Source: Gemmatimonadota bacterium (GTDB taxonomy: Bacteria > Gemmatimonadota > Gemmatimonadetes > Gemmatimonadales > GWC2-71-9). From it: a stretch of DNA of 38,475 bases. Both the position numbers and the translations under genes were made by a program. The DNA is taken from NCBI GenBank assembly GCA_040008015.1, contig JBDTTZ010000492.1, positions 1-38,475 on the forward strand, written 5' to 3'. Below are positions 641 through 34,686 of this stretch, one piece after another. Under the pieces are notes generated by a model. The model saw nothing but the letters and a program-made list of their open reading frames with translations, searched no databases and was not told where the DNA came from. Position 1 is the stretch's first letter; every line of letters starts with the position of its first letter.

Positions 641-804
641 CCGTTTTCAACGCAGAGCCTCAGAGGCTCAGAGAATACTGGCAAAACCAACATTCATATG
701 GCGGATGATTTTGGTTGTGGAACGACCGACCTGATGGGATGCTGAGCCCCGTAAGAAGTTGCCATAAGCTATCTGCCATGGGCCAGTCTCTGAGTTGAAA
801 ACGG
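641..804. repeat. Tandem-unit hairpin element, CAGAGNCT type, with about 100-nt low-GC insert
   Basis: Left arm is CCGTTTTCAAC + CAGAGCCT CAGAGGCT CAGAGAAT + ACTGGC (641-682). Right arm is GCCAGT + CTCTGAG + TTGAAAACGG (782-804). The 11-nt clamp and the inner 6-mer are perfectly complementary. Unit count is 3 on the left and 1 on the right. Confidence 0.9.
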
Positions 805-847
805 CGCCCCGCAAGGGACAGCAGACTACCCCGCTAGATTCCCTCTT

Positions 848-2935
848 ATGAATCGCCTCGGCTCCGCACCATCGGCCTATCTCCATTCCGCCGCGCACCA
901 GCCGGTGCACTGGTATCCCTGGAGCGACGAAGCTTTCGCCGCGGCCCAGAAAGCGGATCGCCCGATCCTGCTCGATATCGGCGCGGTCTGGTGTCACTGG
1001 TGCCACGTCATGGACGGGGAGTCGTACGAAGACCCGGCGCTGGCCGGTTTCCTGAACCAGAACTTCATCGCCATCAAGGTGGACCGGGACGAGCGCCCCG
1101 ACGTCGACGCCCGGTACCAGCGCGCGGTCCAGGCTTTCTCCGGCCAGGGCGGCTGGCCGCTGACCGGTTTCCTCACACCCAAAGGCGAGGTCTTCTACGG
1201 CGGCACTTACTTCCCGCCCGATGGGAAGTACGGGCGCCCCGGGTTCCGGAGCGTGCTGGAACAGGTCCTCGGCATCTATCGCCAGCAGCAGGACCGGGTG
1301 GTGTCGCAATCGGAGGCGGTGCAGCGGATCGTGGCGGAGTCGCTGGACGAGACCGCGTCCGGCGCGGCGAGTGACACGATCCTGGAGCAGGCGATCGAGC
1401 GGATGAAGCGAAGCTTCGACTTTGCCAACGGCGGATTCGGCAACGCGCCCAAGTTCCCCCACCCCGCGGCGATCGCGCTGCTGCTGCGCCGCTACCTGGA
1501 TCAACCGGAGCCCGTTCTCCGCGAAATGATCGAGGCCAAGCTCGACGCCATGGCCCGGGGCGGGATTCACGACCACCTCGGTGGCGGCTTTCACCGCTAC
1601 AGCACCGATGCCCGCTGGATCGTGCCCCACTTCGAGAAGATGTCCTACGACAACTCCGAGCTGCTCAAGGCCTATCTCGACTGCTACGCAGCGTTCGGGA
1701 ACGAGGAGTTCGGGGAAACGGCGCGGGGGATCGTGCGCTTTGTCCGGGAAGTGCTCGCCGATGCCGGTGGCGGCTACGCCGCCAGCCAGGATGCGGATGT
1801 CGGCCTGGACGACGACGGGGACTACTTCACCTGGACGCTGGAAGAGGCCCAGGCCGTGCTCTCCGGCAGCGAGCTGGATGTCGCCACCACGTACTATGAC
1901 ATCGGGACCGCGGGTGAAATGCATCACAACCCCGGCAAGAACGTGCTCTATGTCAGCGCACCACTGGAGACCGTCGCCATCCGGCTGGGGATTCCACTGG
2001 AGGAAGTGATGCGCGTCCTGCCGGTGGCGGCGGGCCGGCTCCGCGCCGCTCGCGCGAAGCGCACCGCGCCTTTCGTGGATCCGACCCGCTACACCAGCTG
2101 GAACGCCATGCTGGCGAGCGCCCTGCTCGCGGCCGGCGCGGTCCTGATCGACGACTGGGCCCGGGAGAACGCGCTGGGAACTCTGCGGCGGATTCAGCGC
2201 GAGAACACCGAGCCCGACGTGGTGGGTCACACCCCGGGCGGCGCGCAGCACCTGCTGGACGACCAGGTCCAGGTCGCCAACGCGAGCCTAGACGCGTGGG
2301 AGGCAACCGGCGACTCGTCCTGGTTGGCGTGGAGCATCCGGATCATGCAGCGGGTGTGGCGGGACTTCTGGGACCCGGCAGGCGGCGGATTCTTTGACTC
2401 CCGCGCGGCTGAAGGATCGGCGGGACTCCTGCCGCTTCCTTCCAAGCTGGTGCAGGACGCGCCGACGCCGTCACCCAACGGAGTGGCTGGAATCGTCCTT
2501 GCGCGGCTGGCGGAGATCACCGGTGATCCGGCCTGGCAGCTGCGCCGCGATGAGCTGGTCAGGACTTTCGCCGGCGGCGCCGCCGACCTGGGACTGCACG
2601 GCGCCACGTTTCTGATTGCGATGGACTGGACGCTCAGGCCGCCGGCTCACTTCGTGATTGTTGGCCCGGCCGGCGATCCTGAGGCCGAGCGGATGCACCG
2701 CCGCGCCCTGGGTACGTTCCTTCCGCGCCGAGTTGTCCTCAGGGTTACTCCGGAATCTCTGGCCACGACCGCACTGCCTCCAGCGGTTCGCGGCATGATT
2801 GACAATGCGCCAGGGTCCAGGGCATACGCCTGCGTGGGGACCAGTTGTCGAGTGCCGGTCACGAACGATACCGAGTGGAAAGCCACCCTCGACCAGCTCG
2901 CCCCCAATGCAGTCATTCCTGCCGTGGAAAGTTGA
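848..2935 (+). CDS. Thioredoxin-fold protein of the DUF255/YyaL (SSP411-like) family
   Basis: 695 aa. N-terminal thioredoxin-like motif GAVWCHWCHVMD, followed by a long alpha-helical (six-hairpin-like) region typical of the family. Confidence 0.85.
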   Translation: MNRLGSAPSAYLHSAAHQPVHWYPWSDEAFAAAQKADRPILLDIGAVWCHWCHVMDGESYEDPALAGFLNQNFIAIKVDRDERPDVDARYQRAVQAFSGQGGWPLTGFLTPKGEVFYGGTYFPPDGKYGRPGFRSVLEQVLGIYRQQQDRVVSQSEAVQRIVAESLDETASGAASDTILEQAIERMKRSFDFANGGFGNAPKFPHPAAIALLLRRYLDQPEPVLREMIEAKLDAMARGGIHDHLGGGFHRYSTDARWIVPHFEKMSYDNSELLKAYLDCYAAFGNEEFGETARGIVRFVREVLADAGGGYAASQDADVGLDDDGDYFTWTLEEAQAVLSGSELDVATTYYDIGTAGEMHHNPGKNVLYVSAPLETVAIRLGIPLEEVMRVLPVAAGRLRAARAKRTAPFVDPTRYTSWNAMLASALLAAGAVLIDDWARENALGTLRRIQRENTEPDVVGHTPGGAQHLLDDQVQVANASLDAWEATGDSSWLAWSIRIMQRVWRDFWDPAGGGFFDSRAAEGSAGLLPLPSKLVQDAPTPSPNGVAGIVLARLAEITGDPAWQLRRDELVRTFAGGAADLGLHGATFLIAMDWTLRPPAHFVIVGPAGDPEAERMHRRALGTFLPRRVVLRVTPESLATTALPPAVRGMIDNAPGSRAYACVGTSCRVPVTNDTEWKATLDQLAPNAVIPAVES

Positions 2936-2952
2936 GCGTCCCCCGATATCAA

Positions 2953-3036
2953 CCTTTTTCAATACAGAGCCTCAGAGACTCAGAGGAACAAACAGACTGT
3001 TTTCTCTGAGCCTCTGTGGCTCTGAGTTGAAAAAGG
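2953..3036. repeat. Tandem-unit hairpin element, CAGAGNCT type, compact copy
   Basis: CCTTTTTCAATACAGAGCCTCAGAGACTCAGAGG...CTCTGAGCCTCTGTGGCTCTGAGTTGAAAAAGG. My hand pairing gives roughly 35 bp with a few mismatches. Confidence 0.9.
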
Positions 3037-3095
3037 TGGCGCGCAAAGGTGCCCAGCCAGCCCGCACTGGTTTACCTTCCAACGATGGCCTCAAA

Positions 3096-3119
3096 TCTCT
3101 CTCTCTCACTCTCTTTCTC
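3096..3119. repeat. Polypyrimidine (CT) low-complexity tract immediately upstream of ppiB
   Basis: TCTCTCTCTCTCACTCTCTTTCTC, ending 5 nt before the ppiB ATG. Confidence 0.9.
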
Positions 3120-3124
3120 AGAAA

Positions 3125-3574
3125 ATGAAAACCGCTAGCATCGACACCTCGCGCGGCACCATCACCGTTGAGCTCTTCGATACCGAAGTGCCCGGCACCG
3201 TCGCCAATTTCGAGAAGCTCGCCGGCCAGAATTTCTACGACGGCACCCGCTTTCACCGGGTGATTCCCAATTTCATGATCCAGGGCGGGGACCCGCTTTC
3301 CAAGGATCCCAACAACCCCCGGGCCGGCACCGGCGGGCCGGGCTACAAGATCAAGTGCGAGACCCACCTCAACACCCACAAGCATGTGGCGGGAACCCTG
3401 TCGATGGCCCACGCCGGTAAGGATACCGGCGGCAGCCAGTTCTTCGTCTGCCATGCCCCCCAGCCGCATCTCGACAAGGTGCATACCGTGTTCGGCCAGG
3501 TGACCAAGGGCATGGACGTGGTGAATGCGATCCGGCAGGGCGATGAGATCAAGTCGATCACGGTGACCGGGTGA
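3125..3574 (+). CDS. ppiB: Peptidyl-prolyl cis-trans isomerase, cyclophilin type
   Basis: Hallmark [15 protein letters not shown] and [18 protein letters not shown]. 149 aa with no signal peptide. Confidence 0.9.
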
Positions 3575-3975
3575 ACCTCGATTTTGCCGTGCTGGCCGAT
3601 TATGCCCTGATCGACCAGCAAGGCAAGCTTTCGATCATCGGGATTTTTCAGCACGTCTGGGTCACTTCGTTTCCCACGGTAAACGCCCGGACCCATCTCG
3701 TGCTTCGGGTCAAAGGCCGGCGGACCGAGATCGGCAACCACTCCATTCGCATCCGCTTTGTGGATGCCGAAGGCCAGGAGCTCCTGGGCGGCGAAGGCAC
3801 GGTGCAGTTCGGAGAGCCGGTGGCCGGCGTCACCGAGCTGGAAGCGGGCGCTGTCCTGGTGTTCGATATCCCGCTTCCCATGGCCGGCCAGTACGCCTTC
3901 GAAATCAGCCTCGACGGCCAACTCTCAACCCGGGTGCCGCTCACGGCAGCACCGGTAGTGCGTCCGAAGGAATAG
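3571..3975 (+). CDS. Hypothetical protein (134 aa, beta-rich, no motif recognised)
   Basis: GTG start overlaps the ppiB stop (GTGA), implying translational coupling. Codon usage is coding-like. No family assigned with confidence. Confidence 0.55.
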
Positions 3976-4027
3976 AATGACCTGTCCTTCGATCCTCATT
4001 CAAGAACGCGGTCCACGGAGTATCTCT

Positions 4028-5419
4028 ATGCGACGGTTCCCAGTCTGGCTGGCCGCCGGCGTCCTTGCCGGTGCCATGGCTGCCCCTCGAACGATCCTGG
4101 CGCAGGGCTATGGAGTCTACGAGCACGGCACCTGCGCGATGGCGCGGGCCGGTGCGGCCGTCGCCTCCCCATGCGATGACGCCTCCACAATCTTCTTCAA
4201 TCCTGCGGGGCTCGCGCTGGCCGATCACCAGCTCGTCAGCGCCGGCGGCACCCTGATTGCGCCATCGGGACAGTTCGAGAACGACAACACCGGAATCAAG
4301 ACCAGGATGAACCGGCGGGTCTACCCGGTTCCTCATTTCTACTTTCAGCATCCCATCAGCAAGCGGATTGTCGCCGGGTTCGGTTTCTTCGTCCCCTACG
4401 GCCTGGAAACCGATTGGCCGGAGAACTTCGAAGGGCGATTCCTGGGCTACAAGAGCCTGGTCCAGGGTTTCTATCTCCAGCCGACGGTCGCCGCGAAAAT
4501 CACCGACCGGATCATGGTCGGCGCCGGGGTGGACTTCACCTACCTGAAGGTCGGGCTGCATCAGCACCTCGACCTCGCCCCCCAGGCGCTGCCCCCGCCG
4601 GCGCCGCCCGGAGCCACCTTCGCCAACCTGGGCATTCAGCAGCGCACCGACTTCGCCAACGCCGATCTCGTGGGACATGGCTGGAACCTGGGGTACAACC
4701 TGGGGATCCTCTGGCAGGCGACCGACAAATTTTCCCTGGGAGTTCGCTTCCTCTCCCGGCAGAAGGTTGAGATCAATGACGCCGACGTGACCTTCACCCA
4801 GATCGCGACCAACGATACCCTCGCCATGGGCAACCCCTTCGGCGTGCCGCCCGGTACCACCCTCGACCAGGTGCTGGCGTCGCGCTTCCTCGACGATTCG
4901 ACGCTCGGCAAGCAAAGCGGCCAGACCTCGCTGACACTGCCGGAGCAGCTGGTTCTCGGCGCGGCCTACCAGCTCACCCCCCGGTTCAAGCTGCTCTTCG
5001 ATTATCAGCATACGAACTGGAAAGTCTTCGATCGCCTGGTGATCGACTTCGACCACGCGGGCCAGCGGACAATCGTGGAGGACTACAAGGCGAGCGACGG
5101 GGTCCGGCTGGGCGGGGAATACGCCTGGACCTCCAACACCACGGTGCGCGCCGGGTTCCTCACCCACACCGAGGCGGCACCGGACCAGACGGTGACGCCG
5201 AATCTGCCGGAAGGTCCGCGCTCCGAGTTTACCCTGGGCCTGGGGACCCGGTTGACCAATTCACTCCGGGTCGATCTCGCTTACCAGTACATCGACCAGG
5301 CCGACCGGCGCGGACGCACCACCGATGGCGGCCAGGCGGTGCCGACCACCGCGGTCAACAACGGCCTCTACACTTTCCATGCTCATCTCTTCGGCGCGAC
5401 GTTCGCGCTGGCGTTCTGA
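4028..5419 (+). CDS. Outer-membrane transport protein, OMPP1/FadL/TodX family
   Basis: I chose the start at ATG 4028, which gives signal peptide MRRFPVWLAAGVLAGAMAAPRTILAQ; the track start 3977 is rejected. The beta-barrel-like sequence ends in a terminal Phe (FALAF). FadL-like N-terminal GYGVYEHGTCAMARAGA. Confidence 0.8.
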   Translation: MRRFPVWLAAGVLAGAMAAPRTILAQGYGVYEHGTCAMARAGAAVASPCDDASTIFFNPAGLALADHQLVSAGGTLIAPSGQFENDNTGIKTRMNRRVYPVPHFYFQHPISKRIVAGFGFFVPYGLETDWPENFEGRFLGYKSLVQGFYLQPTVAAKITDRIMVGAGVDFTYLKVGLHQHLDLAPQALPPPAPPGATFANLGIQQRTDFANADLVGHGWNLGYNLGILWQATDKFSLGVRFLSRQKVEINDADVTFTQIATNDTLAMGNPFGVPPGTTLDQVLASRFLDDSTLGKQSGQTSLTLPEQLVLGAAYQLTPRFKLLFDYQHTNWKVFDRLVIDFDHAGQRTIVEDYKASDGVRLGGEYAWTSNTTVRAGFLTHTEAAPDQTVTPNLPEGPRSEFTLGLGTRLTNSLRVDLAYQYIDQADRRGRTTDGGQAVPTTAVNNGLYTFHAHLFGATFALAF

Positions 5420-5435
5420 CAGGGAGACCACGATC

Positions 5436-6707
5436 ATGAAACCTCGCTATCTCGCCGCCTCCCTGGCGCTGGCCCTCGCGATCCTTGCCGGCTGCCATTC
5501 CGACGACTCGCTGAATCCGCCCGCTTCGCCCCCGGTCCCCAGCGGCGGCGCGATCTTCCAGCGCTACGTCGCGCTGGGCAACAGCATCACCGCCGGTGTG
5601 CAGTCCGCCGGCATTAACGACAGCACTCAGGCCCGCTCCTACGCCTTGCTGGTGGCCGAGGCCATGGGAACCAGCTTCATCTATCCCCGGCTCAATATGC
5701 CGGGCTGTCCCCCGCCGTTTCTCAATAACGTGACCCAGACCCGGGTGAACCTGCCCGGACTGCCGCCTCCGGACGACATGACCTGCTATCTCCGGCAGAG
5801 CAACGTCACGCCCAACAATGTCGCTGTCCCCTTCGCCCGGGCGACCGAAGTGCTTACCAACTTCGCGGTGCCTTCCCGGGCCAATGCGCTGACCACGATG
5901 TTCCTGGGCGGCCGGAACCAGGTGAAGGCGATGCGCGACCAGAACCCGACCTTTGTCTCGCTCTGGATCGGGAACAACGATGCGCTGGCGGCACTGACCA
6001 ACCTGGTGAACCCGGGTAATCCCGATTCGGTCACCGACGTCGCCGTCTTTCAGAGCCAGTACACCGCAATCCTCGACAGCATCGCCGCGACCGGGGCCCA
6101 GGCCGTCCTCCTCACGGTCGCCGACATATCGGTGATCCCCTACGCCTCGCGCGGCTCGGTGTACTGGTGTCTCCGGACTGGCCTTTGCCCCGGCATTCCT
6201 CAGCAGCTCCCGTCCGCCCTGACGGTCTCCAACAATTGCGCACCCAACGCCGCGATTCCCGGCTCCAAGGGTGACTCCATCCTGGTGCCGTGGCCGATCG
6301 GGGTTCCCAAGATCGCCGCCGCCGCCGCGGGCCAGCCCACCACGCTTGACTGCAGCGTGGACACCGACGTCATCACTCCGAGCGAGTACGCCGGATTGCG
6401 CAACGCGGTCCTCGGCTTCAACACCTTCATCCAGACCCAGGCCGCCACCCGGGGCTACGCCTTCGTCGACGTGAACCCGCCGCTTCTCCAAAAAGTGGGC
6501 ACCGGGGAGATTCCGCCTTTCCCGGATCTGAGCCAGGCGCTATCCGGAGGGAACATTGGGTTCGGTCCGCTCTTCTCGCTGGACGGCGTCCACCCCAGCA
6601 CGGTCGCCCACCGCCTGGTGGCCGACTCGGTAGCGTCCGCGATCAACCAGAAGTACGGCACCACGCTCCCGGTACCGGTGTGCGGAGCGATTAGCTGCCC
6701 GAACTGA
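5436..6707 (+). CDS. SGNH/GDSL-type hydrolase lipoprotein
   Basis: ATG 5436 is preceded by AGGGAGA. Lipobox LAILAGC. Block I is ALGNSITAG and block V is DGVHPS. The track start 5325 overlaps the upstream gene and is rejected. Confidence 0.75.
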   Translation: MKPRYLAASLALALAILAGCHSDDSLNPPASPPVPSGGAIFQRYVALGNSITAGVQSAGINDSTQARSYALLVAEAMGTSFIYPRLNMPGCPPPFLNNVTQTRVNLPGLPPPDDMTCYLRQSNVTPNNVAVPFARATEVLTNFAVPSRANALTTMFLGGRNQVKAMRDQNPTFVSLWIGNNDALAALTNLVNPGNPDSVTDVAVFQSQYTAILDSIAATGAQAVLLTVADISVIPYASRGSVYWCLRTGLCPGIPQQLPSALTVSNNCAPNAAIPGSKGDSILVPWPIGVPKIAAAAAGQPTTLDCSVDTDVITPSEYAGLRNAVLGFNTFIQTQAATRGYAFVDVNPPLLQKVGTGEIPPFPDLSQALSGGNIGFGPLFSLDGVHPSTVAHRLVADSVASAINQKYGTTLPVPVCGAISCPN

Positions 6708-6858
6708 GACGGTAGGACGGAAAGACAGTAAGACGGTATGGTGGAGACAGTCACCCTACCGCCTTTGTCGTTTCCATTCTTAATTCATCTCTGGTTCCGT
6801 TCTCCATCCTGCGGTGAAGGCGGTCACCTACCGTCTTACCGTCTTACCGTCCTACCGT
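6708..6858. repeat. Tandem-unit hairpin element, GACGGTAR octamer type
   Basis: Left arm has 4 units (GACGGTAG GACGGAAA GACAGTAA GACGGTAT, 6708-6739). Right arm has 4 units of YTACCGTC (6827-6858). Internal oppositely oriented ACCGCC and GGCGGT copies sit at 6754-6762 and 6818-6826. Confidence 0.9.
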
Positions 6859-6864
6859 CTTTCT

Positions 6865-7446
6865 ATGACCTGGAATCGCGAGCGAGCGCTGGCCCTGATG
6901 CACGAGTACACCGCCTCGGAAGCGCTGCGGAAGCACATGTACGCGGTGGAGATCGCCATGCGGGCGATGGCGATAAAGGCGGGCGAAAACCCCGATGAAT
7001 GGGGCATCGTGGGGTTGCTGCACGATTTCGATTACGAGCGCTTTCCCAATGCCGCCCACTCGCCGACCGAGGAGCATCCCGCCGAGGGCGTGCGCATCCT
7101 GGCGGCGCAGGGTTTCCCCGACGCCTGGCAGCGCGCCATCCTGGGTCATGCCACCTATTCCGGAGTCCCGCGGGACACGCCGCTGGCCAAGGCGCTCTTC
7201 GCGGTAGACGAGATTTCCGGGTTCCTGGTCGCCTGCGCGCTGGTCCGGCCCACCAGGAGCCTCCAGGACCTCGAAGTTTCCAGCGTCAAGAAGAAGTTCA
7301 AGGACAAGGCATTCGCCCGTGGGGTGAGCCGGGAGGATGTGATCCAGGGCGCCGCGGAGCTGGGCGTTCCGCTCGATGATCATATCCAGTTCGTGCTGGA
7401 GGCCCTGAGGCCGGAGGAGAAGGTGCTGGGGTTGGGCGTGGGGTAG
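6865..7446 (+). CDS. HD-domain phosphohydrolase
   Basis: MTWNRERALALMHEY... with the HD motif in LLHDFDYERF. The track start 6814 lies inside the octamer repeat array (it translates as [11 protein letters not shown]) and is rejected. Confidence 0.8.
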   Translation: MTWNRERALALMHEYTASEALRKHMYAVEIAMRAMAIKAGENPDEWGIVGLLHDFDYERFPNAAHSPTEEHPAEGVRILAAQGFPDAWQRAILGHATYSGVPRDTPLAKALFAVDEISGFLVACALVRPTRSLQDLEVSSVKKKFKDKAFARGVSREDVIQGAAELGVPLDDHIQFVLEALRPEEKVLGLGVG

Positions 7447-7467
7447 TCAAGCGACCTCTGGACAGCG

Positions 7468-7670
7468 CCCTTTTCAACTCAGAGCCTCAGAGACAACAGT
7501 CAGTGCTCCGTCGAGTTACCCATTTTCAACGCTCGGCAACTCCAATTGTTTTTCTATGTGGCCCTAAGTGTCCTACGTGACTACGTGTTGAAAACGATCG
7601 TTTGGTAAGGAGTGACCATCCGACTTCCCGCCGATCCCTCTGAGCCTTTGAGTCTCTGCGTTAAAAACGG
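7468..7670. repeat. Tandem-unit hairpin element, CAGAGNCT type, outer copy of a nested pair
   Basis: Left end is CCCTTTTCAAC TCAGAGCCTCAGAGACA (7468-7494). Right end is CCCTCTGAGCCTTTGAGTCTCTGC GTTAAAAACGG (7636-7670). Confidence 0.85.
7521..7596. repeat. Second TTTTCAAC...GTTGAAAA-clamped element lying inside the 7468-7670 element
   Basis: CATTTTCAACGC... (7521-) and ...CCTACGTGACTACGTGTTGAAAACG (to 7596). The arms between the clamps are only partly complementary, so this looks like a degenerate copy. Confidence 0.6.
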
Positions 7671-9126
7671 CAGCCTGAAAAGGAAACCTGACGACCCGAA
7701 CACGGTGACCGCAACCAAGACCGTTCAATCATCCGCTCCCTCCACACCTCCGGAGGCCGGCACGATCGAAAAGGCCGTCGACCGGGCCGCCGATGCGCGC
7801 CCCATACCGGGCAACGATGTCCGGCTGCTGCTCAATGGCCCCGAGTGTTACGCCGCGATGTTCGACCTGATCGCCCGGGCGCAACACTGGATTCACTTCG
7901 AGAACTACATCATCCGTTCCGACCGGATCGGGTGGCAGTTCGCCGAGGCGCTCGCGGCCCGGGCGAAGGACGGCGTCAGCGTCCGGGTGATTTACGACTG
8001 GCTCGGATCGTTCGCCACCCGCTCGAAGTTCTGGAAGTTCCTGCGCGAGGCCGGTGTCGAAGTTCACTGCCACAATCCCCCCAAGTTTCTCGATGCCTTC
8101 CAGAATCTAAATCGCGACCATCGGAAGCTGGTGGTGGCGGACGGTATTGCCGGGATCACCGGCGGACTCTGCATCGGCGACGAGTGGATGGGCGACGAGG
8201 CGAAAGGCATTCAACCATGGCGGGATACCGGGATCGAGATCAGCGGGCCCGCGGCGGTCGCGCTGGACCAGTCGTTCAACACCCTCTGGCGCATTACCGG
8301 AGGGAGCACGGGAGAAGACCGGAGCCCGGACTCCATCCCTGACCGGGGAGAGGCGAGCTGCCGGGTCATCGCCGGGCGGCCCGGACGGGAGCGGACCTAC
8401 AAGGTGCTCGAGATCCTCGCCGCGAGCACGGTAAAGCGGCTCTGGATCACCGATGCGTACATGGTGCCCCCGCCCCGCCTCTTCCAGGCCTTCGTGGATG
8501 CGGCCCGTGACGGCGTGGACATCCGGATGCTGGTGCCGGGGTCGAGCGACGTAACCCTGGTGCGGAACCTCACCCGGGTCGGCTATCGCGACCTGTTGCG
8601 CGCCGGGGTGCGGATCTTCGAGTGGGATGGGCCCATGCTCCACGCCAAGACGATCGTGGCCGACGGCTGCTGGGCCCGGATCGGCACCAGCAATCTCAAC
8701 GCGTCGAGCCTGACCGGGAACTACGAGCTGGATGTCCTGATCGAAGATCCCAGGCTGGCGCACCAGCTGGAAGAGCAGTTCCGCCGGGACATCGCGCGCA
8801 GCTCGGAGATCATTCGCGGAAAACTTCGCGCGCCCCAGCGGTTCCAGAAGGTCCTGCCCTCGGTGCTCGCGCGGCAGAGCCCGGAAGAAGCTCCCGCGGT
8901 GCATACCCGCACCCGGAGAGAAGCGCGGCGCCGGGCGGTGGTGGCCCTGTGGACGGTGGTGACTGGTGCGCGGCGTTCGCTTTTCGGGCCGGCGGCGCTG
9001 GTCCTGATCGCCCTGGGCGGGCTGTTTATCGTGATGCCCCGGGTAATGGCGTACGGCTTCGGCGCGATCTGCGTCTGGCTCGCGGTCGCGGCCACCCGGG
9101 AAGCCGTCCGGCGCCGCGGCGGATAA
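7612..9126 (+). CDS. Phospholipase D / cardiolipin synthase-like protein (start uncertain, possibly GTG 7705)
   Basis: Two HKD motifs (HRKLVVADG and HAKTIVADG...GTSNLN). C-terminal hydrophobic segments. Codons 9-20 of the track ORF lie within the right arm of a repeat element (7636-7670), so the true start is probably downstream. Confidence 0.8.
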   Translation: MTIRLPADPSEPLSLCVKNGSLKRKPDDPNTVTATKTVQSSAPSTPPEAGTIEKAVDRAADARPIPGNDVRLLLNGPECYAAMFDLIARAQHWIHFENYIIRSDRIGWQFAEALAARAKDGVSVRVIYDWLGSFATRSKFWKFLREAGVEVHCHNPPKFLDAFQNLNRDHRKLVVADGIAGITGGLCIGDEWMGDEAKGIQPWRDTGIEISGPAAVALDQSFNTLWRITGGSTGEDRSPDSIPDRGEASCRVIAGRPGRERTYKVLEILAASTVKRLWITDAYMVPPPRLFQAFVDAARDGVDIRMLVPGSSDVTLVRNLTRVGYRDLLRAGVRIFEWDGPMLHAKTIVADGCWARIGTSNLNASSLTGNYELDVLIEDPRLAHQLEEQFRRDIARSSEIIRGKLRAPQRFQKVLPSVLARQSPEEAPAVHTRTRREARRRAVVALWTVVTGARRSLFGPAALVLIALGGLFIVMPRVMAYGFGAICVWLAVAATREAVRRRGG

Positions 9127-9245
9127 CGCCTTTTATTGTAACGCCTTAGTCTGCTCCCTCCCACCCCGGATTCTCCCGGCTATTCTTCCTGTCACATGGG
9201 AACTCCTGACCTCAACGATTACCTCTCTGCTGACGTAAATCCGAC

Positions 9246-9788
9246 GTGAGCGACGCTGATCTCGCCCGGCGCGCCTCGATGGGCGACAGCGATGCTTTCG
9301 GAGAGCTGGTCAACCGGCACGCCGCCGCGGCGCGCCGCCTCGCACGGACGGTTCTGCAGAACGCCGAAGATGCCGACGATGCCGCGCAAGACGGGTTCCT
9401 GCTCGCCTGGCGTTATCTCGAGCGCTACGACCCGGAACGGCCCTTCGCGCCCTGGCTGATGCGTATCGTGCTGAACGCGGCGGCGGACCTGCGGAGGAAA
9501 CGCCGAGTGCGGCAGACCGAGATGATTCCGCCGGCGGCCCTGTCCTCGGAGCGTTCACCCGACGAACAGACCGACTGGCGGCTCTTTCACAGCGAGCTGA
9601 GCGAGGCCCTGGAGCGGCTGCCGGAGCGGCAGCGGATCGCCGTCACGTTGTTTGATGTCGAAGGCTACAGTCACGGAGAAATCGCCGAGCTGCTGAAGAT
9701 TCCCGAGGGAACCGTGCGCTCCGACGTCTTTCACGCCCGGCGCACGTTACGCCAGGCCTTGAGCGCCTTTCGCGAGGAGCCAGAATGA
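9246..9788 (+). CDS. ECF-type RNA polymerase sigma-70 family factor
   Basis: Region 2 (DAAQDGFLLAWRYLERYDPERPFAPWLMRIVLNAA) and region 4 HTH (EGYSHGEIAELLKIPEGTVRSDVFHARRTL). GTG start. Confidence 0.85.
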   Translation: MSDADLARRASMGDSDAFGELVNRHAAAARRLARTVLQNAEDADDAAQDGFLLAWRYLERYDPERPFAPWLMRIVLNAAADLRRKRRVRQTEMIPPAALSSERSPDEQTDWRLFHSELSEALERLPERQRIAVTLFDVEGYSHGEIAELLKIPEGTVRSDVFHARRTLRQALSAFREEPE

Positions 9789-10123
9789 GCGACAACCCGT
9801 TCGCCAGCGAACGCGACCAGAAACTGGGCGACCTGCTGCGCCGATACCTGGAGCCGTCGGATCATGCCGGCTTTGTGCGCCGGGTCATGGTGGGGCTCCA
9901 CGCTACCGACAATAGTTGGGACGTGCTGAGCCGCTGGGCGCGCCCCGGTATCGCGGCAGCCCTGGCCTTCATCCTGGGCGCGGCAACCTGGGTCATTCTC
10001 CAGAGCGCCGCGGAGCCGCAATCACTGGCGGACGCGGTGTTGCCCGGCGACGCGCCGGCGACACTCTTCTCCGCGACCCAGCTGAACAATGAGCTGGTAT
10101 TAGAGGCAGTACTTGAGCGGTAA
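9785..10123 (+). CDS. Putative anti-sigma factor / small membrane protein
   Basis: ATGA overlap with the sigma gene. 112 aa with one hydrophobic segment (GIAAALAFILGAATWVIL). The assignment rests on position only. Confidence 0.5.
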   Translation: MSDNPFASERDQKLGDLLRRYLEPSDHAGFVRRVMVGLHATDNSWDVLSRWARPGIAAALAFILGAATWVILQSAAEPQSLADAVLPGDAPATLFSATQLNNELVLEAVLER

Positions 10124-10281
10124 CTAAAGGACTGAGGACTGAGGACTCTGCGATTCACGGTCCCAGCCTTTGGTCAGAATCCCAACTCTCTTAGTCCTTA
10201 GTCCTTGGTCCTTAGTCCTTGGTCCTTAGTCCTTGGTCCTTAGTCCTTGGTCCTTGGTCCTTAGTCCTTGGTCCTTAGTCC
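10124..10281. repeat. Tandem-unit hairpin element, GGACTRA heptamer type (about 3 versus 13 units)
   Basis: Left arm is CTAAAGGACTGAGGACTGAGGACT (10124-10147). Right arm is 13 consecutive TTAGTCC/TTGGTCC units at 10191-10281, in the order A A G A G A G A G G A G A. The spacer is 43 nt. Confidence 0.95.
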
Positions 10282-10290
10282 CTGGAGTTT

Positions 10291-10674
10291 ATGCGTTCGA
10301 CCCTGAAGGCAACCCTGCTGCTCATCGCCACCTTCGCCGGAGGCGCGCTGGCCGGCGGCGCGGTGATCGGCCTGGCCGATCGCGACAAGCTCCCGGGACG
10401 GAAATACCACTACCATCATGGGGACGACGACCACATCGAGTTCCTGAGCCGGAAGCTGGAGTTGACTCCGCCCCAGAAAGACAGCGTCCACTCCATCCTC
10501 GAACGGCACAAGCCGGCGATGGATTCGCTGTGGCGGCAGCTGGGGCCCCGGTTTGAAACAATCAGGGACTCGATCAGTAATGAAATCCGCCGGCAACTGA
10601 CGCCGAAACAACAACAGGCCTATACCGAGATGATCCGCCGCTTCGAGGAAGAGCGCCGGGGACCTCCTGAGTGA
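10291..10674 (+). CDS. Periplasmic LTXXQ-motif protein (Spy/CpxP-like, heavy-metal-sensor family)
   Basis: N-terminal signal or anchor. LTPPQ and LTPKQ motifs. His-rich HYHHGDDDH. GGAG lies 3 nt upstream of the ATG. Confidence 0.7.
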   Translation: MRSTLKATLLLIATFAGGALAGGAVIGLADRDKLPGRKYHYHHGDDDHIEFLSRKLELTPPQKDSVHSILERHKPAMDSLWRQLGPRFETIRDSISNEIRRQLTPKQQQAYTEMIRRFEEERRGPPE

Positions 10675-10675
10675 A

Positions 10676-11997
10676 ATGAATCGAATCCTGCTTGCCCTCG
10701 CGGGCGCCGTTACCGTGGTGAGCCCGGGCGCGAGCGCCCAGATCGCCGACTCGGCGACCCATAGCCAGATTCCCGTCGTCACCCTGGAGGAAGCCATTCG
10801 GCTGTCCGCCATAGTGCAGCCCTCGGTGATCTCCGCTGAAGGCTCCGTGCGCAACGCCGGCGCCCAGATCCGCGCGGCCCGGGGGCAGTTCCTCCCCAGT
10901 GTTACCGCCCAGTCCAGCGCAGGAAATTCCTTTTCCGAAGGCGCGCGGACCGATCCGATCACCGGCAACCTGGTAGCGGCCAACCAGAGCAACACCAGCA
11001 TCAGCATGGGCCTCTCCGCGCGGGTGGATCTCTTCACCGGGTTCCGGCGGGGCACAGACGTGCGGGCAGCCCGGGCCCAGGGCAGCGCGGCGGACGCTTC
11101 GCTGGTGGATGCCCAGTATCAGTCCAAGCTGAATACCACCACCGCGTTCTTCAATGCGCTCTACGACGCGCAGCTGGTCCAGGTCCGCCAGGCAGGCGTC
11201 CGCCGTGCCGACGAGCAGCTCAAGATCTCCATCGCCAAGCTGGCCTCCGGCTCGGCCACCCGCTCCGACTCATTGCAATCGCTGGTGCAGCTGGGCAATG
11301 CCCGGGTGCAGCTGGTAAACGCGCTCTCCCTGCTCGCGACCGACGAGGCCAACCTCGGGCGCCTGGTTGGCGCCGAGGGCCGGGTAGCGGCGGCCGACGA
11401 CTCGGCGTACTACCGGGTCATGACCATACCCGACACCGCCCAGATCCGGCGCGAGGCGGTGGAGCGCTCGCCCCGGGTCCAGAGCACGCTCGCCACCCAG
11501 AACGCGGCCCGCGCCACGCTCTCTTCTGCCCGTTCCGCCTACTGGCCGACCCTGAGCCTGGCCGGCAACTACAACTACAACGGGAGCAAGAGCCTCGACT
11601 ACGAGCTGTTCAACAACCGTTCGGTTTCGCTCTCGCTGTCCTGGCCCCTGTTCAACAACTTTACCCGGGAACGCAACATCACCTTGCAGGAAGTCTCTCT
11701 CGAGATCGCCGAAGCCAATGCGACCGATACCCGCCGCCAGATCCTCGCGTCGCTCACCGGGCAGTTGGGCAGCCTTGAGGCCGCGCGGCTCCGCATCGAG
11801 ATCACCACGATCAGTGTCGCGGCCGCCGAAGAGGATCTGCGGGTTCAGCGCGAGCGCTACCGGCTCGGCGCCTCGACCATCGTAGAGCTGTTGACCTCGC
11901 AGGAGAACCTGGACCAGGCCGAGGTGGACCTGGTGAATGCGCGATTCGACTACCTGAAGGCCAAAGCCCAGATCGAAGCCATCATTGGACGGACCCT

Positions 11998-12001
<4 letters not shown>
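10676..12001 (+). CDS. TolC-family outer-membrane efflux protein
   Basis: Signal peptide ending ASAQ. Two-repeat coiled-coil/beta pattern typical of OEP/TolC. Starts 1 nt after the upstream stop. Confidence 0.85.
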
Positions 12002-12753
<752 letters not shown>

Positions 12754-12754
12754 A

Positions 12755-15507: not shown

Positions 15508-15511
15508 CAAC

Positions 15512-15624: not shown

Positions 15625-15662
15625 CGCGGTTATCTTCCAATTCTCAATTTCCCCATCTCGCC

Positions 15663-19475: not shown

Positions 19476-19493
19476 TTTGGAGCGGTAGCGTCT

Positions 19494-19745: not shown

Positions 19746-19797
19746 CTCGTGGTTCCTCCTAACGAAGCGGTTCCCCCGGAGATATCTTAAGCGGTTC

Positions 19798-22166: not shown

Positions 22167-22439
22167 ATGTTCATCTTCAGCTGGGTAAGCACCATCATCA
22201 CCGTTGCCGCCGGGCTCACCGGTTTCCTGTTGACTCGCCGGTTCGTCGCCCGCCGGCTTCGCTTTGTGGATTCGGTCTACTCGCCGGCGGCACCGTTCAT
22301 CATCGCGGCGCTGGCGATGCTGCTGGCCTGGCCGGTCTCCGCCTTGCCGCTGGTCACCGCGACCGCCAGCGCGCTGTTCGGCATCGGCGCCGGGCTGGGA
22401 ACCATCAGCGGAGTCAAGGCGCTCAGACGAGCCAACTAG
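22167..22439 (+). CDS. Small hypothetical membrane protein (about 90 aa)
   Basis: MFIFSWVSTIITVAAGLTGFLL plus two further hydrophobic segments. The start is chosen at the first Met before TM1. No family recognised. Confidence 0.45.
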   Translation: MFIFSWVSTIITVAAGLTGFLLTRRFVARRLRFVDSVYSPAAPFIIAALAMLLAWPVSALPLVTATASALFGIGAGLGTISGVKALRRAN

Positions 22440-22443
22440 AATT

Positions 22444-22494
22444 GAAGATGGAAGATTGAGGATTGAGGATTATCCTTCTTCCATGGCTTCCATT
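22444..22494. repeat. Heptamer array GAAGATG GAAGATT GAGGATT GAGGATT with a complementary segment overlapping the yggX start codon
   Basis: 22448-22463 (ATGGAAGATTGAGGAT) can pair with 22472-22484 (ATCCTTCTTCCAT). That gives 13 bp with a 3-nt bulge, and the pairing includes A and U of the yggX AUG (22483-22485). Confidence 0.8.
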
Positions 22495-22731
22495 ACATGT
22501 GCTCGTTGCGGCCAGACCCGGGACCAGATGCCCTTCCGGCCGTTCCCCAACGATGTCGGTCTCAAGGTGTTTGAGAGCATCTGTAATGTGTGCTGGCAGG
22601 AATGGCTCGCCACCCAGAAGCAGATCATCAATCACTATTCGCTCGACCCCCGGGAGCCGAAGTCCAGGGAAGTACTCTACACCCACATGGACACCTTTCT
22701 CTTCGGGCCCAGGGGACTGCCGACGGCGTAG
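22483..22731 (+). CDS. yggX: Fe(2+)-trafficking / oxidative damage protection protein YggX
   Basis: MASITCARCGQTRDQMPFRPFPNDVGLKVFESICNVCWQEWLATQKQIINHYSLD is a close match to the YggX family pattern. Confidence 0.85.
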   Translation: MASITCARCGQTRDQMPFRPFPNDVGLKVFESICNVCWQEWLATQKQIINHYSLDPREPKSREVLYTHMDTFLFGPRGLPTA

Positions 22732-23927: not shown

Positions 23928-23950
23928 AGGGGCGCACTGCGTGCGCCCCT
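23928..23950. repeat. GC-rich REP-like palindrome AGGGGCGCAC-TGC-GTGCGCCCCT between convergent genes
   Basis: Perfect 10-bp stem with a 3-nt loop. It lies between the pirin stop (23922) and the PDZ-protein stop (23960). No U-tract. Confidence 0.85.
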
Positions 23951-23959
23951 GCCGGCGCC

Positions 23960-27595: not shown

Positions 27596-27753
27596 GCAGG
27601 CCTCCAGCAAATTGTGGGATGTAACGGGATGGATGGTGAGCCGACCGAGTATGCGGAATCTCTTCAGTGTCGTCAAGGAGCGTCGGCGCATCGGTTGTGG
27701 CGTTGATGCGGCAGGAAATAAAATCAGAACTCGAACAAGGCTAGATTCCGCCC

Positions 27754-30150: not shown

Positions 30151-30174
30151 AGGAGCGCACAGCTGTGCGCCCCT
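30151..30174. repeat. Second copy of the GC-rich palindrome, AGGAGCGCAC-AGCT-GTGCGCCCCT
   Basis: 9 of 10 stem pairs. It lies between the HAF-protein stop (30145) and the leuS stop (30187) and shares GCGCAC...GTGCGCCCCT with the 23928 copy. Confidence 0.85.
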
Positions 30175-30186
30175 ACAGACCCGCCC

Positions 30187-32634: not shown

Positions 32635-32649
32635 AGGGCTGGGAATTTA

Positions 32650-32755
32650 GACGGTAGGACGGTAAGACGGTAAGACGGTAGGACGGTAAGGCTCCGATCC
32701 ATGTCATCCGGTGTTCTTACCGCCTTACCGCCTTACCGCCCTACCGCCCTACCGC
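32650..32755. repeat. Tandem-unit hairpin element, GACGGTAR / GGCGGTAR octamer type (5 + 5 units)
   Basis: Five GACGGTAR units at 32650-32689 and five CYTACCGC units at 32716-32755. The loop is about 26 nt. It lies in the divergent leuS/MCP spacer, 16 nt upstream of the leuS start. Confidence 0.95.
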
Positions 32756-32805
32756 CCTTCTTCATAGCTTTGCTAATCCCGCCATCAGAGAGCCGCAAAC
32801 CCACC

Positions 32806-34122
32806 ATGGCCAAACAGAGCTACTCGCTCCTCCGCACGATGGGACTTTTCGCCGCCGCCGCGATCCTCACGTTCCTGGTCATTACCGTTGTGGTTCTGAG
32901 CTTCGGCCTGCATCTGACCCCCTGGCAGCTGCTGGGCCGCATCTGGCTCCAGATGCTGATCCTGGGCGCGGTCATGGCCATCCTGCTCGGATACATCGGG
33001 AACCGGATCAAGCACCGGGTGGTGGATCCACTGGTTGGTCTCGACGCGCGGGTCGGGGACGTCGCTCAGGGCAACCTTTCACAGAGTGTCACCGCGTCGT
33101 CCCGGGCGAGCGGCGAAGTACTCAAGCTGGTCGACGGCGTGAACTACATGGTGAGCGAGCTTCGGTCCCTGGTGGATTCGATTCGACATTCGGCGGGCGA
33201 TGCCGCGACGCTGGCCATGCAGATCTCCGCCTCCACCCAGCAGATGAGCGCGTCAACCGAAGAAGTGGCCGGCACCTGCGGGGACCTTACCGACCGGGCC
33301 AACAAACAGGCCGCCCTGGTCCGCGCCACCGCCCAGGACGCCGGCCGGATCCTTTCGATCGCCAAGACGCTGGCCGACGGCGCCCGGCAGGCCGCCGAGC
33401 GCAACGCCGCACTCGCCAAGGTCGCCCGGGCCCACCAGGAACAGCTCGATACCAGCTCGGTGCAGCTGAAACGGCTGACCGAGGAAATCGAGCTTGGCGC
33501 ATCCGAGGCCGAGGCGCTGGCCGCCGCCTCGGAAGAGATCGAGAAGTTCGTCACCCAGACCAAGGCGATTGCCCGGCAGACCCACATGCTGGCGCTGAAC
33601 GCCGGTATCGAGGCCGCCCGGGCCGGGGCCGAGGGACGCGGGTTTGCAGTGGTGGCGGAAGAAGTCAGGAAGCTGGCGGGACAGGCCGCACAGGCCGCGA
33701 CGACCACCAGCCAGACCGTGGACCTGGTCCAGACCCGGGTGCGCACGGCGCGGGAACGGCTGATCCGCCTTGCCCAGGGTGGCATGACCGCGCGGGACGC
33801 CGCCAATACCGCGGTCCAGGGCCTGAGCCAGGTCGCGGCCGAGGCCGAGGCTAACGACCACTGGACTCGCCAGATCTCGACCTCGGCGGGCGAGGTCCGG
33901 GAGCTGGTGGATGGTATCGCGAGCCGGATGGGCGGCGTGTCCGAGGGAACCGAAGAGTTTGCGGCGGCGGCCCAGGAGATTGCGGCATCGGCCGAGGAAT
34001 TGAGCGCCTCAACCGTGGAGATCGCCAACTCGGCGACCCAGCTGTCTGGCGCCTCTAACCGGCTGACGGTTTCGGTGAGCAAGTTCCGGCTGCAGAATGG
34101 AGGGCCGGGAAACGGCAAATAG
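32806..34122 (+). CDS. Methyl-accepting chemotaxis protein
   Basis: I chose ATG 32806 ([26 protein letters not shown]). Two TMs, a HAMP-like region and the conserved signalling hairpin [37 protein letters not shown]. The track start 32701 lies in the repeat array. Confidence 0.85.
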
Positions 34123-34616
34123 CGGCACCCGCACAAAAGGACAGCCGCCAACAGTCGAAATGGCGTCACGTGGGCGGGGGGCGCCCGGCGTTTTCGCTCA
34201 CTTCACCGACTGCAGCGGCTGTCCACCTTCTATGTTGAAGAGCCAGGCGCGGATCCAGAGAATCTTGCGGGACCCGTGGGCGCCCGGCGCCCGGCTCGTT
34301 CGGAGAATTTGCGGCGGGTCCAGAGGGAGTGCGGTGAACTACATCACATTCTGGAATCCTGGACGGCCGAATCGGGCCAACGCGAGCCCGAATCGTTGGT
34401 GGGAGAACTGCGAGGTTGTGTTGTCAGCGGAGGTAGCTGCAGGGAAAGAAGACTCTGGTAGCTGTCCGGTTCAGGAGCCGCGTCAACTCCCGGGTAACCG
34501 GATTTTCGCTTACGCGGAACGCCATCCGAGTCTCACCACCTAATGTAGGGGCGCCGCCGGTGGTGGATGTGAACCGCATCACCAAACACCCGCCATCGTA
34601 ACTCTTTCACCACTAG

Positions 34617-34686
34617 GGACTAAGCCTTTAGGACTAAGGACTAAGGACTAAGGACAGAGGACTGAGGATCGAGGACCGAGGACAGG
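34617..34686. repeat. Solo heptamer array, GGACTAA type (no inverted partner)
   Basis: GGACTAA at 34617-34623, then 8 contiguous units from 34631 to 34686 (GGACTAA x3, GGACAGA, GGACTGA, GGATCGA, GGACCGA, GGACAGG). The units degenerate toward the aminotransferase gene. Confidence 0.9.

Follow-up and report, generated by a model that had tools for sequence, protein, structure and literature searches.

Periodic-arm foldback repeats in the window

The window analysed here is a metagenome contig of 38,475 bp from a Gemmatimonadota bacterium (JBDTTZ010000492.1, assembly GCA_040008015.1), complete as given and with a G+C content of 64%, whose proteins are closest, in protein comparison, to those of Gemmatimonadales metagenome-assembled genomes (MAGs). 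The gene content is that of an ordinary chromosome and includes EndoIII, a DUF255 thioredoxin-like protein, a cyclophilin, FadL, a GDSL lipase, an HD protein and a PLD-type enzyme, together with ECF sigma/anti-sigma pairs, a MacAB-TolC-type efflux system, FabH, pirin, LeuRS and an MCP. The spacers between these genes hold a set of foldback repeats with periodic arms, built from units of 7-9 nucleotides (nt), and this set is real and unusually dense. The arrays fall into at least two classes: a dispersed repeat made of a conserved chassis and a short core (class A), and arrays bound to their loci (class B). They are listed below together with the z-scores of RNA folding, taken against dinucleotide shuffles, and with the folded segment in brackets where it differs from the element.

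627-818: class A element 1; outer inverted repeat 627-660 / 785-818; clamps TTTTCAAC at 644-651 and GTTGAAAA at 794-801; CAGAG units at 653-657, 661-665 and 669-673 on the left, a single CTCTGAG at 788-794 on the right; fold z -5.1
2952-3037: class A element 2, which is the minimal form; a 12-nt loop between arms at 2952-2988 and 3001-3037; fold z -8.3 (2946-3043)
7447-7704: class A element 3, about 260 nt; arms 7468-7497 / 7633-7670
7523-7594: degenerate element with a CGTAG core, lying within the loop of element 3; fold z only -0.55
15512-15624: hairpin of 8-nt units, probably class A; GCAGAGA-CACAAAGC-CACCGAGA at 15512-15538, complement at 15598-15624; fold z -6.7 (15505-15630)
6707-6861: class B; (A/G)GACGGTA x4 at 6707-6738 and TACCGTC(T/C) x4 at 6829-6861; fold z -8.5 (6700-6866)
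10124-10281: class B; GGACTGA x2.9 at 10128-10147 and (C)CTTAGT/(C)CTTGGT x13.1 at 10190-10281; fold z -2.75 (10120-10290)
22441-22494: class B, weak hairpin; GA(A/G)GAT(T/G) x4.4 at 22441-22471 and a short non-repeated complement that holds the downstream ATG (about 22484); fold z -2.4 (22436-22500)
32649-32758: class B; (A/G)GACGGTA x5.2 at 32649-32690 and TACCGCC(C/T) x5.1 at 32718-32758; fold z -6.7 on the plus and -9.3 on the minus strand (32640-32765)
34612-34686, plus strand: class B, one-armed array with no hairpin; GGACTAA/GGACNGA, about 8-10 units; fold z -1.4 and -0.2

Counting with Tandem Repeats Finder (score of at least 30, period 7-9, at least 2.5 copies) gave 14 arrays and four strict inverted array pairs in the window; 200 first-order Markov simulations averaged 1.0 array, never exceeded 4 and produced no such pair. 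The string of clamp plus unit, TTTTCAAYNCAGAGCCTCAGAG, occurs five times in the window at up to three mismatches and is absent from shuffles. Every locus is intergenic, and on the gene map of the window the elements make up nine of the approximately 13 spacers longer than 90 nt. A first-pass annotation, made from the letters of this DNA, had described ten intergenic hairpins with arms of short tandem units whose lengths are not multiples of three, and had proposed a comparison of their folding with shuffled controls. The arrays and their pairing were recovered in place by Tandem Repeats Finder and an inverted-repeat search, the units measure 7-9 nt, and seven loci fold better than their shuffles (z from -2.4 to -9.3). 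Nine loci had actually been listed, and the nested relic at 7523-7594 brings the number to ten. The description as paired arrays holds for most loci; it fails for 34612-34686, which is one-armed, and for 22441-22494, where the array stands on one side only. At 641-804, the inner part of element 1, the left arm is an array as proposed and the right arm holds only about one unit, and 7468-7670, taken at first for a single element, is a composite with a second, degenerate element in its loop.

Syntenic contigs of relatives were reached via homologues of the DUF255 protein and of LeuRS. L001 and the GenBank MAG SMAG_U4459 (L013, L014) share about 82-85% DNA identity with the window, and greater distances separate it from L002-L004 and L113-L116. 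Every carrier met is a metagenome assembly, which would fit an assembly artefact; evidence of such an artefact had been named in the first-pass annotation as fatal to the reality of the elements. Such an artefact is excluded, because the same elements stand at orthologous positions in independent assemblies (L001 from ENA, L002 from JGI, SMAG_U4459 and a 1.39-Mb contig), across samples and assemblers and on contigs of multi-hundred-kb to Mb size. Furthermore, according to Aklujkar et al. (PMC2700814), equivalent sites are annotated in the finished genome of an isolate, Geobacter metallireducens GS-15. At the gathering threshold, Rfam gave no match in the window and only tRNAs in 15 carrier loci; at permissive thresholds (E ≤ 10), the window and the same loci returned only far-sub-threshold matches to generic hairpins (miRNA precursor). 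The exact clamp strings led to one unrelated primer in the literature and to nothing relevant.

Class A arms: a conserved chassis with a switchable core

The working unit of class A is an arm of about 45-65 nt, which consists of the chassis (GGCTTCC)TTTGCG-N6-CG-TTTTCAAC followed by three to four units of the form N C-NN-AG N1-2, each with the five-base core C-NN-AG and spaced 8-9 nt apart. In all copies compared, the arms align as TTTCAAC plus three to four such units. The AT-rich clamp noticed in the first-pass annotation is indeed present, but it is merely the inner part of this longer conserved arm. Three sub-families are distinguished, CAGAG, CGTAG and CGGAG, and the core differs between them in all units of both arms. 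The clamp is common to all three, the outer chassis is seen for CAGAG and CGTAG, and the 8-9-9 unit spacing is common to CGTAG and CGGAG. CGTAG copies are present in L001 (two), L081, L083 and L085 and as the nested relic in the window, and three CGGAG copies in L072. Position-specific spacer bases are kept while the core changes in all units; the spacer bases within the units are otherwise free.

In the window, element 1 sits between the EndoIII stop (605) and the DUF255 start (848). Element 2, each arm of which is a clamp plus three CAGAG units, occupies the spacer between DUF255 and cyclophilin, and element 3 fills the gap between the stop of the HD protein (TAG, 7444-7446) and the PLD start (GTG, 7705), its right clamp being mutated to GTTAAAAA. 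The relic in its loop runs from TTTTCAAC at 7523-7530 through CCTACGTGACTACGT to GTTGAAAA at 7587-7594; its left units are eroded, and it shares an exact 11-nt stretch, TTTTTCTATGT, with the interior of the L001 copy at 12088-12205. The hairpin at 15512-15624, between a MacB-type permease and a DUF5916 gene, has a core of the C-NN-AG type and lacks the TTTTCAAC clamp.

A class A arm may stand alone or form an inverted pair, convergent or divergent, with arbitrary sequence in between. Paired arms of 37-65 nt are 79-86% complementary and form terminal inverted repeats, and the interiors of the 16 copies compared are unrelated, all-against-all BLAST matches being limited to short GCCATAT sub-arrays. 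Some interiors carry inner GGCATAT/ATATGCC sub-arrays or an entire second element, so that the structures are layered and the loops are hot spots. Across types, the arms of one element do share their core type (permutation p 0.001). Within a sub-family, the likeness of an arm to its own partner does not exceed its likeness to partners taken from other copies (0.704 against 0.713, permutation p 0.6; 0.808 against 0.817, permutation p 0.7), and there is therefore no sign of selection for base pairing after insertion. Asymmetric copies, with a CAAAG variant in one arm, are found in both orientations relative to the flanking genes, and the hairpins are flanked by a T-run on the 5' and an A-run on the 3' side.

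The sequence TTTCAAC...GTTGAAA fits the core sites of integron attC recombination sites, RYYYAAC...GTTRRRY, at six of seven positions, and the elements come after stop codons. An attC-like identity is nevertheless, together with the assembly artefact, extremely improbable: in five lineages the elements are flanked by syntenic housekeeping genes and not by cassettes, there is no integrase domain, and periodic arms are no feature of attC.

Turnover of class A at orthologous spacers

The comparison of orthologous spacers, which had been suggested along with the first description, revealed presence, absence and copy-number change. Between EndoIII and DUF255, the full element of the window is matched by a truncated one in SMAG_U4459 and by none in L001-L004, where the empty spacers measure 9-22 nt (9 nt in L001) or hold unrelated sequence (L004). 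Between HD and PLD, SMAG_U4459 carries an element at the same site with an interior wholly different from that of the window, the two genes overlap in L001 (GTGA), and they are 11 nt apart in L002. In the spacer between DUF255 and cyclophilin, SMAG_U4459 has a CAGAG copy with a long loop (L013 7833-7942), L001 has a copy with the CGTAG core (12088-12205; units ACACGTAG/CTACGTGT) and with the clamp and outer sequence as in the window, and L002-L004 have no element. Finally, the spacer orthologous to 15512-15624 is occupied in L004 (21626-21805) by a hairpin of other units, AATTGAGG/CCTCAATT. At the HD/PLD junction, the empty L001 site reads GGGGTGACCG and the filled site GGGGTAG, element, CGGTGACCG, which is compatible with a GGTGA-like target-site duplication, but the flanks have diverged.

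Spread beyond the lineage

In a scan of one genome per species (596 Gb), the arm sequence TTTTCAAYNCAGAGNCTCAGAG gave 43 matches in 36 stretches, against about two by chance on our own estimate, which assumes uniform composition. About a quarter of the matches are in SMAG_U4459. The other carriers, on contigs of 22-70% G+C, belong to Chitinophagaceae and other Bacteroidota, Fusobacteriales, Chlamydiia, Verrucomicrobiota, Planctomycetota (Phycisphaerales), Methylomirabilota, Acidobacteriota (Terriglobia), KSB1, Ignavibacteria, Desulfuromonadota (Geopsychrobacteraceae) and Gemmatimonadota, more than ten phyla in all; every carrier is a MAG, the phylum labels are those of the contigs, and only a few loci per genome were seen. 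All matches run on into more C-NN-AG units, mostly with an inverted partner. A search by nhmmer with an arm profile found single arms as well as pairs, convergent or (in L005, L023, L033 and L035) divergent, and each of them is intergenic; in Chitinophagaceae the arms often face outward, as arm'-GTTGAA-N16-30-TTTTCAAC-arm. The copies lie within 0-50 nt of a gene end, beside housekeeping genes, and the spacers concerned are mostly co-directional or convergent.

No gene family, be it a transposase, an RT or another, is shared near the arms, as judged by all-against-all BLASTP between open reading frames (ORFs) from the 36 loci and by Pfam on the flanking proteins. A pattern scan of viral contigs and a BLAST search of plasmid and phage records with a Bacteroidota copy gave no match, and no Y1_Tnp domain was found among 30 proteins of the window or ten arm-flanking proteins (L011, L015, L023, L033, L034, L035). 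A further metagenome scan, with both clamps and a gap of 100-130 nt, returned 72 stretches, mostly coding or unrelated long palindromes. It was set aside and is not counted as evidence, because a 10-nt inverted pattern picks palindromes by chance from a huge palindrome population; the true family members in it were only L072, L081, L083 and L085/L109. If the reading preferred below holds, one unnamed repeat design builds much of the long-spacer sequence of some Gemmatimonadota, and the arm matches in Bacteroidota, Fusobacteriota, Chlamydiia and others suggest that this may be so there too.

Two further kinds of foldback were met in these scans. In Fusobacteriales (22-30% GC; L026 3900-4700 and 6100-6900, L030 1-900), several distinct periodic arm modules (among them TTACACAAAGGGCACGAAG..., TTGAAACCACGGGAT... 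and TTTTCAACGCAGAG...) follow one another and then return as mirror images in the opposite order, so that palindromes of several hundred nt are nested like Russian dolls; words such as CACGAAG, CACAAAG and CACTAAG are also outer arms in the Geopsychrobacteraceae locus L022. Unrelated near-perfect foldbacks of 141-149 nt (TATTTAACGACACGTTTTCAACTGCACAAAGTACAGGACGTTCC...), with a central segment in either orientation, are present in L049, L054, L082, L091, L102 and L103 (about 37% GC), and this family was caught only through a chance clamp 10-mer.

Class B arrays and their evolution

The class B arrays lack the chassis and are locus-bound; the single family of constant architecture first described is not borne out. 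One unit type is kept at a given spacer, with varying copy number, across relatives with 68-84% DUF255 protein identity. As noted in the first-pass annotation, unit types do recur at unlinked loci (GACGGTA at 6707 and 32649, GGACTAA at 10124 and 34612), and the copy numbers of the two arms are unequal and change. At 6707-6861, the left arm begins inside the lipase stop codon and the right arm ends 4 nt before the ATG of the HD gene (6866); the GACGGTA unit is also found in this spacer in L001, where the right arm has one unit, and in L002. The element at 10124-10281 lies between the anti-sigma stop and the start of an LTXXQ-family gene (10291). Its arms count 2.9/13.1 units in the window and 3.7/9.3 in L001, with an identical loop; SMAG_U4459 has AGTCCTT x6, L002 a degenerate right array and L004 CCTGGCCC x4. 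A pyrimidine-rich array is thus present in every lineage compared and each is internally homogeneous, while the consensus drifts from CCTTAGT/CCTTGGT in the window to CCCTGGCC in L004, which indicates concerted evolution by slippage.

The element at 32649-32758 lies between the divergent leuS (minus strand) and MCP (plus strand) genes and forms nine G.U pairs on the minus strand. In this spacer, L114 has 4+4 units, L113, the closest relative, has been cut to one partial unit by a deletion, L115 carries a hairpin of other units (GAGGGNCN), and the L116 sequence is non-periodic. The weak hairpin at 22441-22494 is absent from L115 and L116, whose spacers of 18 and 63 nt are unrelated, and the one-armed array at 34612-34686, which overlaps the 3' end of an aminotransferase ORF on the minus strand, is missing from an otherwise conserved spacer in L114, L115 and L116. 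Related contigs, about 200 kb in all, contain at least 12 further unit types, some paired and some in single arrays, and one-armed arrays are common. The longest array seen is in L004 (13046-13214), the 1.39-Mb relative, where the FadL and lipase genes are missing and about 14 copies of GACAGTGG stand, one-armed, before the HD gene. More paired arrays (L115 8445-8565 and 13939-14081; L083 6519-6690 and 9248-9335) are built from AGCGGTR/CACTGCT-TACCGCT and GTGAAGG/CTTCACC, and the same set includes GCATTGA/TCAATGC with a 12-nt loop and a one-armed CGCTTCC x4. Since these arrays use yet other units, the periodic-arm design is general in this clade.

Taking into account this mobility of copy number, the repeats might be a pure mutational by-product, in which slippage makes arrays of 7-9 nt and fold-back or template-switch synthesis inverts them, with neither recognition nor function. 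Copy numbers that vary between relatives, unit consensuses that drift in concert, unequal arms, one-armed arrays, the precise deletion between the arms in L113 and the numerous locus-specific unit sequences all fit this origin. It gives no account of a 20-nt arm sequence present in more than ten phyla at about 20 times chance, of a conserved, non-repeated chassis outside the arrays, of one unit at unlinked loci, or of spacer bases kept while all cores change, and as a complete explanation it is improbable.

Elements that act in cis at the RNA level, as 3'-end barriers or terminators, RNase III sites or stop-to-start translational couplers, are likewise distinctly unlikely as a general account. 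Here the purine-rich 5' arm would be Shine-Dalgarno-like and the pyrimidine-rich 3' arm a tract for ribosomal protein S1 or a leader. The folds are very stable: if transcribed, the hairpins between cistrons are modelled at -50 to -80 kcal/mol and could be 3'-end barriers. Several class B stems start in or beside a stop codon and reach to within 4-10 nt of the following start. In every pair of the Gemmatimonadales set, the 5' array is the purine-rich one on either strand, and variation at 10124-10281 yields G.U pairs on the sense strand. In Beggiatoaceae, heptamer arrays upstream of starts have been proposed as S1, Csp or CsrA sites (PMC4679880). The window shows no excess of canonical U-tailed terminators (in 1-20000, 10 terminator-like sites vs 11.9 expected), so that other 3' structures may serve. 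None of these sites coincides with an element, however, and the flanks, a U-run 5' and an A-run 3', are the reverse of a terminator; on both grounds an identity as intrinsic terminators was rejected. Furthermore, the sense strand is not the better folder in five of eight loci, A.C mismatches occur on the sense strand in the GACGGTA element of L002 and in class A copies, there is no compensatory change between arms, and elements are lost in close relatives with no visible replacement. The leuS element is probably upstream of the transcription start: it stands upstream of a likely -10 box for a near-leaderless mRNA and may therefore be outside that mRNA.

Two apparent signs of strand were dropped. 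The purine-rich arm coming first was considered as a transcription polarity and rejected: it is a matter of topology and not of strand preference, since for an inverted repeat it is true on both strands by construction. Chitinophagaceae copies show the opposite topology. The asymmetry of G.U and A.C pairs, considered as a test for a sense RNA, is inconsistent between loci and orthologues and was dropped as evidence. Collectively, RNA roles are possible for some class B loci with stop-to-start stems, for which consistent support is lacking.

A third explanation is that the paired arrays are bound by a regulator of the host or by a nucleoid protein (ribbon-helix-helix-type, or IHF/HU) and would be placed in spacers to control neighbouring promoters or DNA looping, the hairpin being incidental. 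Ribbon-helix-helix-type proteins read tandem boxes of 7-8 bp, such as the 8-bp met boxes of MetJ and the 7-bp heptads of the omega protein, and the periods of 7-9 bp found here fit these iterated operators. The cores are conserved while the spacer bases within the units are free, the same units return at unlinked loci, one-armed arrays are common, and the leuS/MCP arrays flank a divergent promoter region, directly upstream of -10-like TAAATT and TAGCTT boxes. The same function is proposed for the Geobacter sites by Aklujkar et al. (PMC2700814). Such a regulator is nonetheless unlikely to account for the set: at least 12 unit sequences in about 200 kb of related DNA would need many regulators, orthologous spacers differ in their units by lineage, the closest relative is without the leuS element, the neighbours are unrelated housekeeping genes, and the clamp, as read from the sequence, fits the IHF consensus WATCAANNNNTTR poorly.

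Preferred explanation

Taken together, the anatomy, turnover and spread of the arms lead us to prefer, tentatively and at slightly less than an even chance, REP/MITE-like foldback repeats whose arms are iterated recognition sites. Class A would be a dispersed, non-autonomous intergenic repeat of this kind with the arm as its working unit; arms are gained and lost at spacers, and further elements land in their loops. The iterated cores would be putative recognition sites, read in trans by an oligomeric factor that may move the arms or simply bind them; the likeliest candidate is a DNA-binding protein, for example a transposase, a recombinase or a nucleoid protein. Such a binder would explain why the same core is present in all units of both arms and why it switches block-wise. 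Iterated binding sites have just this appearance: one core throughout, a conserved chassis and spacer bases that are free to vary. Slippage by itself could hardly produce it, since the spacer bases would then be homogenised too. The class B arrays persist at their spacer, often with an inverted partner, and are homogenised and resized by replication slippage. Both the mode of spread and any effect on expression are what we infer from these patterns. Among the functions offered in the first-pass annotation, a selfish slippage-prone element and a protein landing pad fit best.

Several observations weigh against these REP/MITE-like repeats. No clean target-site duplication can be read, the possible GGTGA/GGTAG at the HD/PLD junction being the only candidate, and neither the window nor the surroundings of the 36 and more loci yielded a transposase, a RAYT or any other candidate binder. 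The interiors are unrelated, unlike those of classical MITEs (miniature inverted-repeat transposable elements), which are mobilised in one piece. Concerted evolution with no binder could likewise bring about the block-wise core switch. Class B is kept at one spacer over deep divergence, which suggests a local function that a purely selfish model does not need. Finally, the lineage of the window is known only from metagenome assemblies.

A more far-reaching version, rather doubtful, is that the arms with the TTTTCAAC chassis constitute a superfamily of bacterial foldback elements across phyla, with a resettable C-NN-AG core read by an oligomeric factor; the elements would spread with no linked transposase and build up preferentially in each other's loops. 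If true, they would not be a variant of REP or MITE but prokaryotic DNA of a new kind, mobile or self-propagating, whose recognition core is "programmable". For the preferred REP/MITE-like repeats as well, the chassis with its switchable core offers a concrete handle on the factor that would read the iterated 8-nt units.

Annotation effects and neighbouring features

The MCP ORF is called from an ATG at 32701, in the loop of 32649-32758, and translates the right arm, the start in relatives being placed at about 32815; the repeats therefore corrupt start-codon calls. Similarly, the aminotransferase ORF on the minus strand runs into the array at 34612-34686. Repeats of this kind create false ORFs, shift predicted starts and could mislead searches for structured RNAs.

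Other features were observed in the spacers beside the repeats. The 9-mer CTAGATTCC (CTAAATTCC at leuS) lies 5-10 nt upstream of the ATG of DUF255 (834-842), VIT1 (27741-27749, plus strand) and leuS (32642-32650, minus strand), and also upstream of the leuS and VIT1 genes in L113, L114, L115 and L116. At one mismatch it is found seven times window-wide against 4.7 expected, which is no excess, and the exact copies are all proximal to starts. It resembles a -10 box positioned for mRNAs with no leader or almost none. Numerous starts in the window have a pyrimidine-rich leader and no Shine-Dalgarno motif, and a CT-rich tract, (TC)n / CTCTCTCTCTCA, is present at 3096-3120, just 5' of the cyclophilin start.

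The spacer between the convergent MCP and aminotransferase genes, about 450-480 nt long, is conserved in blocks in four lineages (34123-34611 in the window; L114 608-1090; L115 4144-4581; L116 4121-4579). The blocks include CCAACGAATCGGGCNCGCGTTGGCCCG and GCGAAAACGCCGGGCGCCCCCCGCCCACGT, and no Rfam match was obtained at the gathering score. This spacer could hold an unannotated RNA or a small gene, and the window ORF at 34097-34543 may be spurious. A G+C-rich palindrome, GGGGCGCAC-N4-GTGCGCCCCT, has two copies in gene-end spacers (23930-23955 and 30155-30180); it is REP-like or resembles a terminator with no U-run, and is distinct from the periodic-arm elements.

Comparison with known systems

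The earlier statement that the elements match neither Rfam, nor CRISPR, nor classical REP sequences was confirmed. CRISPR was rejected since the units here are contiguous and of 7-9 nt, against repeats of 24-48 nt with unique spacers. The bacterial MITEs (Correia/NEMIS, Nezha, Chunjie) have a shared interior, target-site duplications and a parent insertion sequence (IS). In general description, class A resembles them in being non-coding, in its terminal inverted repeats, in its intergenic location, in its presence or absence at orthologous sites and in its ability to sit within operons; it differs in that a shared interior and, in a non-exhaustive search, a parent IS with the same ends were not found. 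ISL3-like ends (GGCTCTTC...), considered as a possible parent, show only a loose resemblance and were set aside. The eukaryotic Foldback (FB) elements have long inverted terminal repeats of short tandem sub-repeats, variable and unequal arms and a variable middle, and are the nearest in design to the repeats described here; but they are eukaryotic, of kilobase scale and equipped with their own transposases, and the likeness is not one of descent.

Intergenic heptamer arrays (STRR) are said to have been described in cyanobacteria by Mazel et al. in 1990. For TAACTGA repeats, which are found in Beggiatoaceae, Cyanobacteria and Bacteroidetes, 169 direct sets against one indirect repeat were counted in a Beggiatoa genome (MacGregor 2015, PMC4679880). 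Like the elements described here, these arrays consist of 7-nt tandem units confined to spacers, often end a few nt before a start and occur in distant phyla; unlike them, they are direct arrays of other units, with no chassis or clamp.

The REP/BIME/REPIN sequences, with their GTAG- and CGTC-tagged superfamilies, are built on a palindromic unit of 20-40 nt with a terminal tag (PMC3733652, PMC3116915). Class A shares with REP the extragenic location, the multiple copies, the occurrence as singletons, as head-head or tail-tail dimers (in REP 1-100 bp apart) and as clusters, the short tag found across phyla, the long hairpins formed when paired and the use as a preferred landing place for other elements. 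In contrast to REP, the class A arm is non-palindromic, with no internal self-complementarity, so that two arms are needed to pair, and it contains three to four periodic sub-units. Its head is TTTTCAAC, as opposed to the GTAG/CGTC tag of REP, and GTAG is found only within the units of the CGTAG sub-family. Unlike in REP systems, no RAYT gene was seen among the window proteins.

The closest precedent is bacterial. Aklujkar et al. 2009 (BMC Microbiol 9:109, PMC2700814) list, in supplementary alignments, 24, 21 and 8 pairs of sites on opposite strands, classes 1-3, in G. metallireducens GS-15; each site comprises three to five tandem octa-, nona- or heptanucleotides, the distance within a pair is about 80-110 bp, and the sites are intergenic. 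They are called global regulator binding sites there, IHF/HU binding being a guess made with no experiment. These sites share with the present elements the opposite-strand intergenic pairs of tandem 7-9-nt units at variable distance, and class 3 has the purine-rich array first (TCAGGAG/TCAGAAT ... CTCCTGA/ATTCTGA), as do the pairs of the window. Moreover, the CGGAG sub-family unit CACGGAGA (L072), when reverse-complemented, gives the class 2 consensus as published, TCTCCGTS(Y), and the class 3 unit is that of the AGGAGTC array in L004 (146-178); for class A the comparison is with the published consensus, which makes identity a possibility. Because the design had thus already been catalogued in Geobacter, the elements are not wholly new, and the first impression of an undescribed design had to be given up. 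Their description covers one genome and does not note the chassis, the core-switching sub-families, the turnover, the nesting or the spread across phyla; in the literature searched, the chassis with its switchable core, its turnover and its presence in many phyla appear to be undescribed. Class A allows one to ask whether bacterial foldback repeats spread otherwise than by the REP/RAYT or MITE/IS routes.

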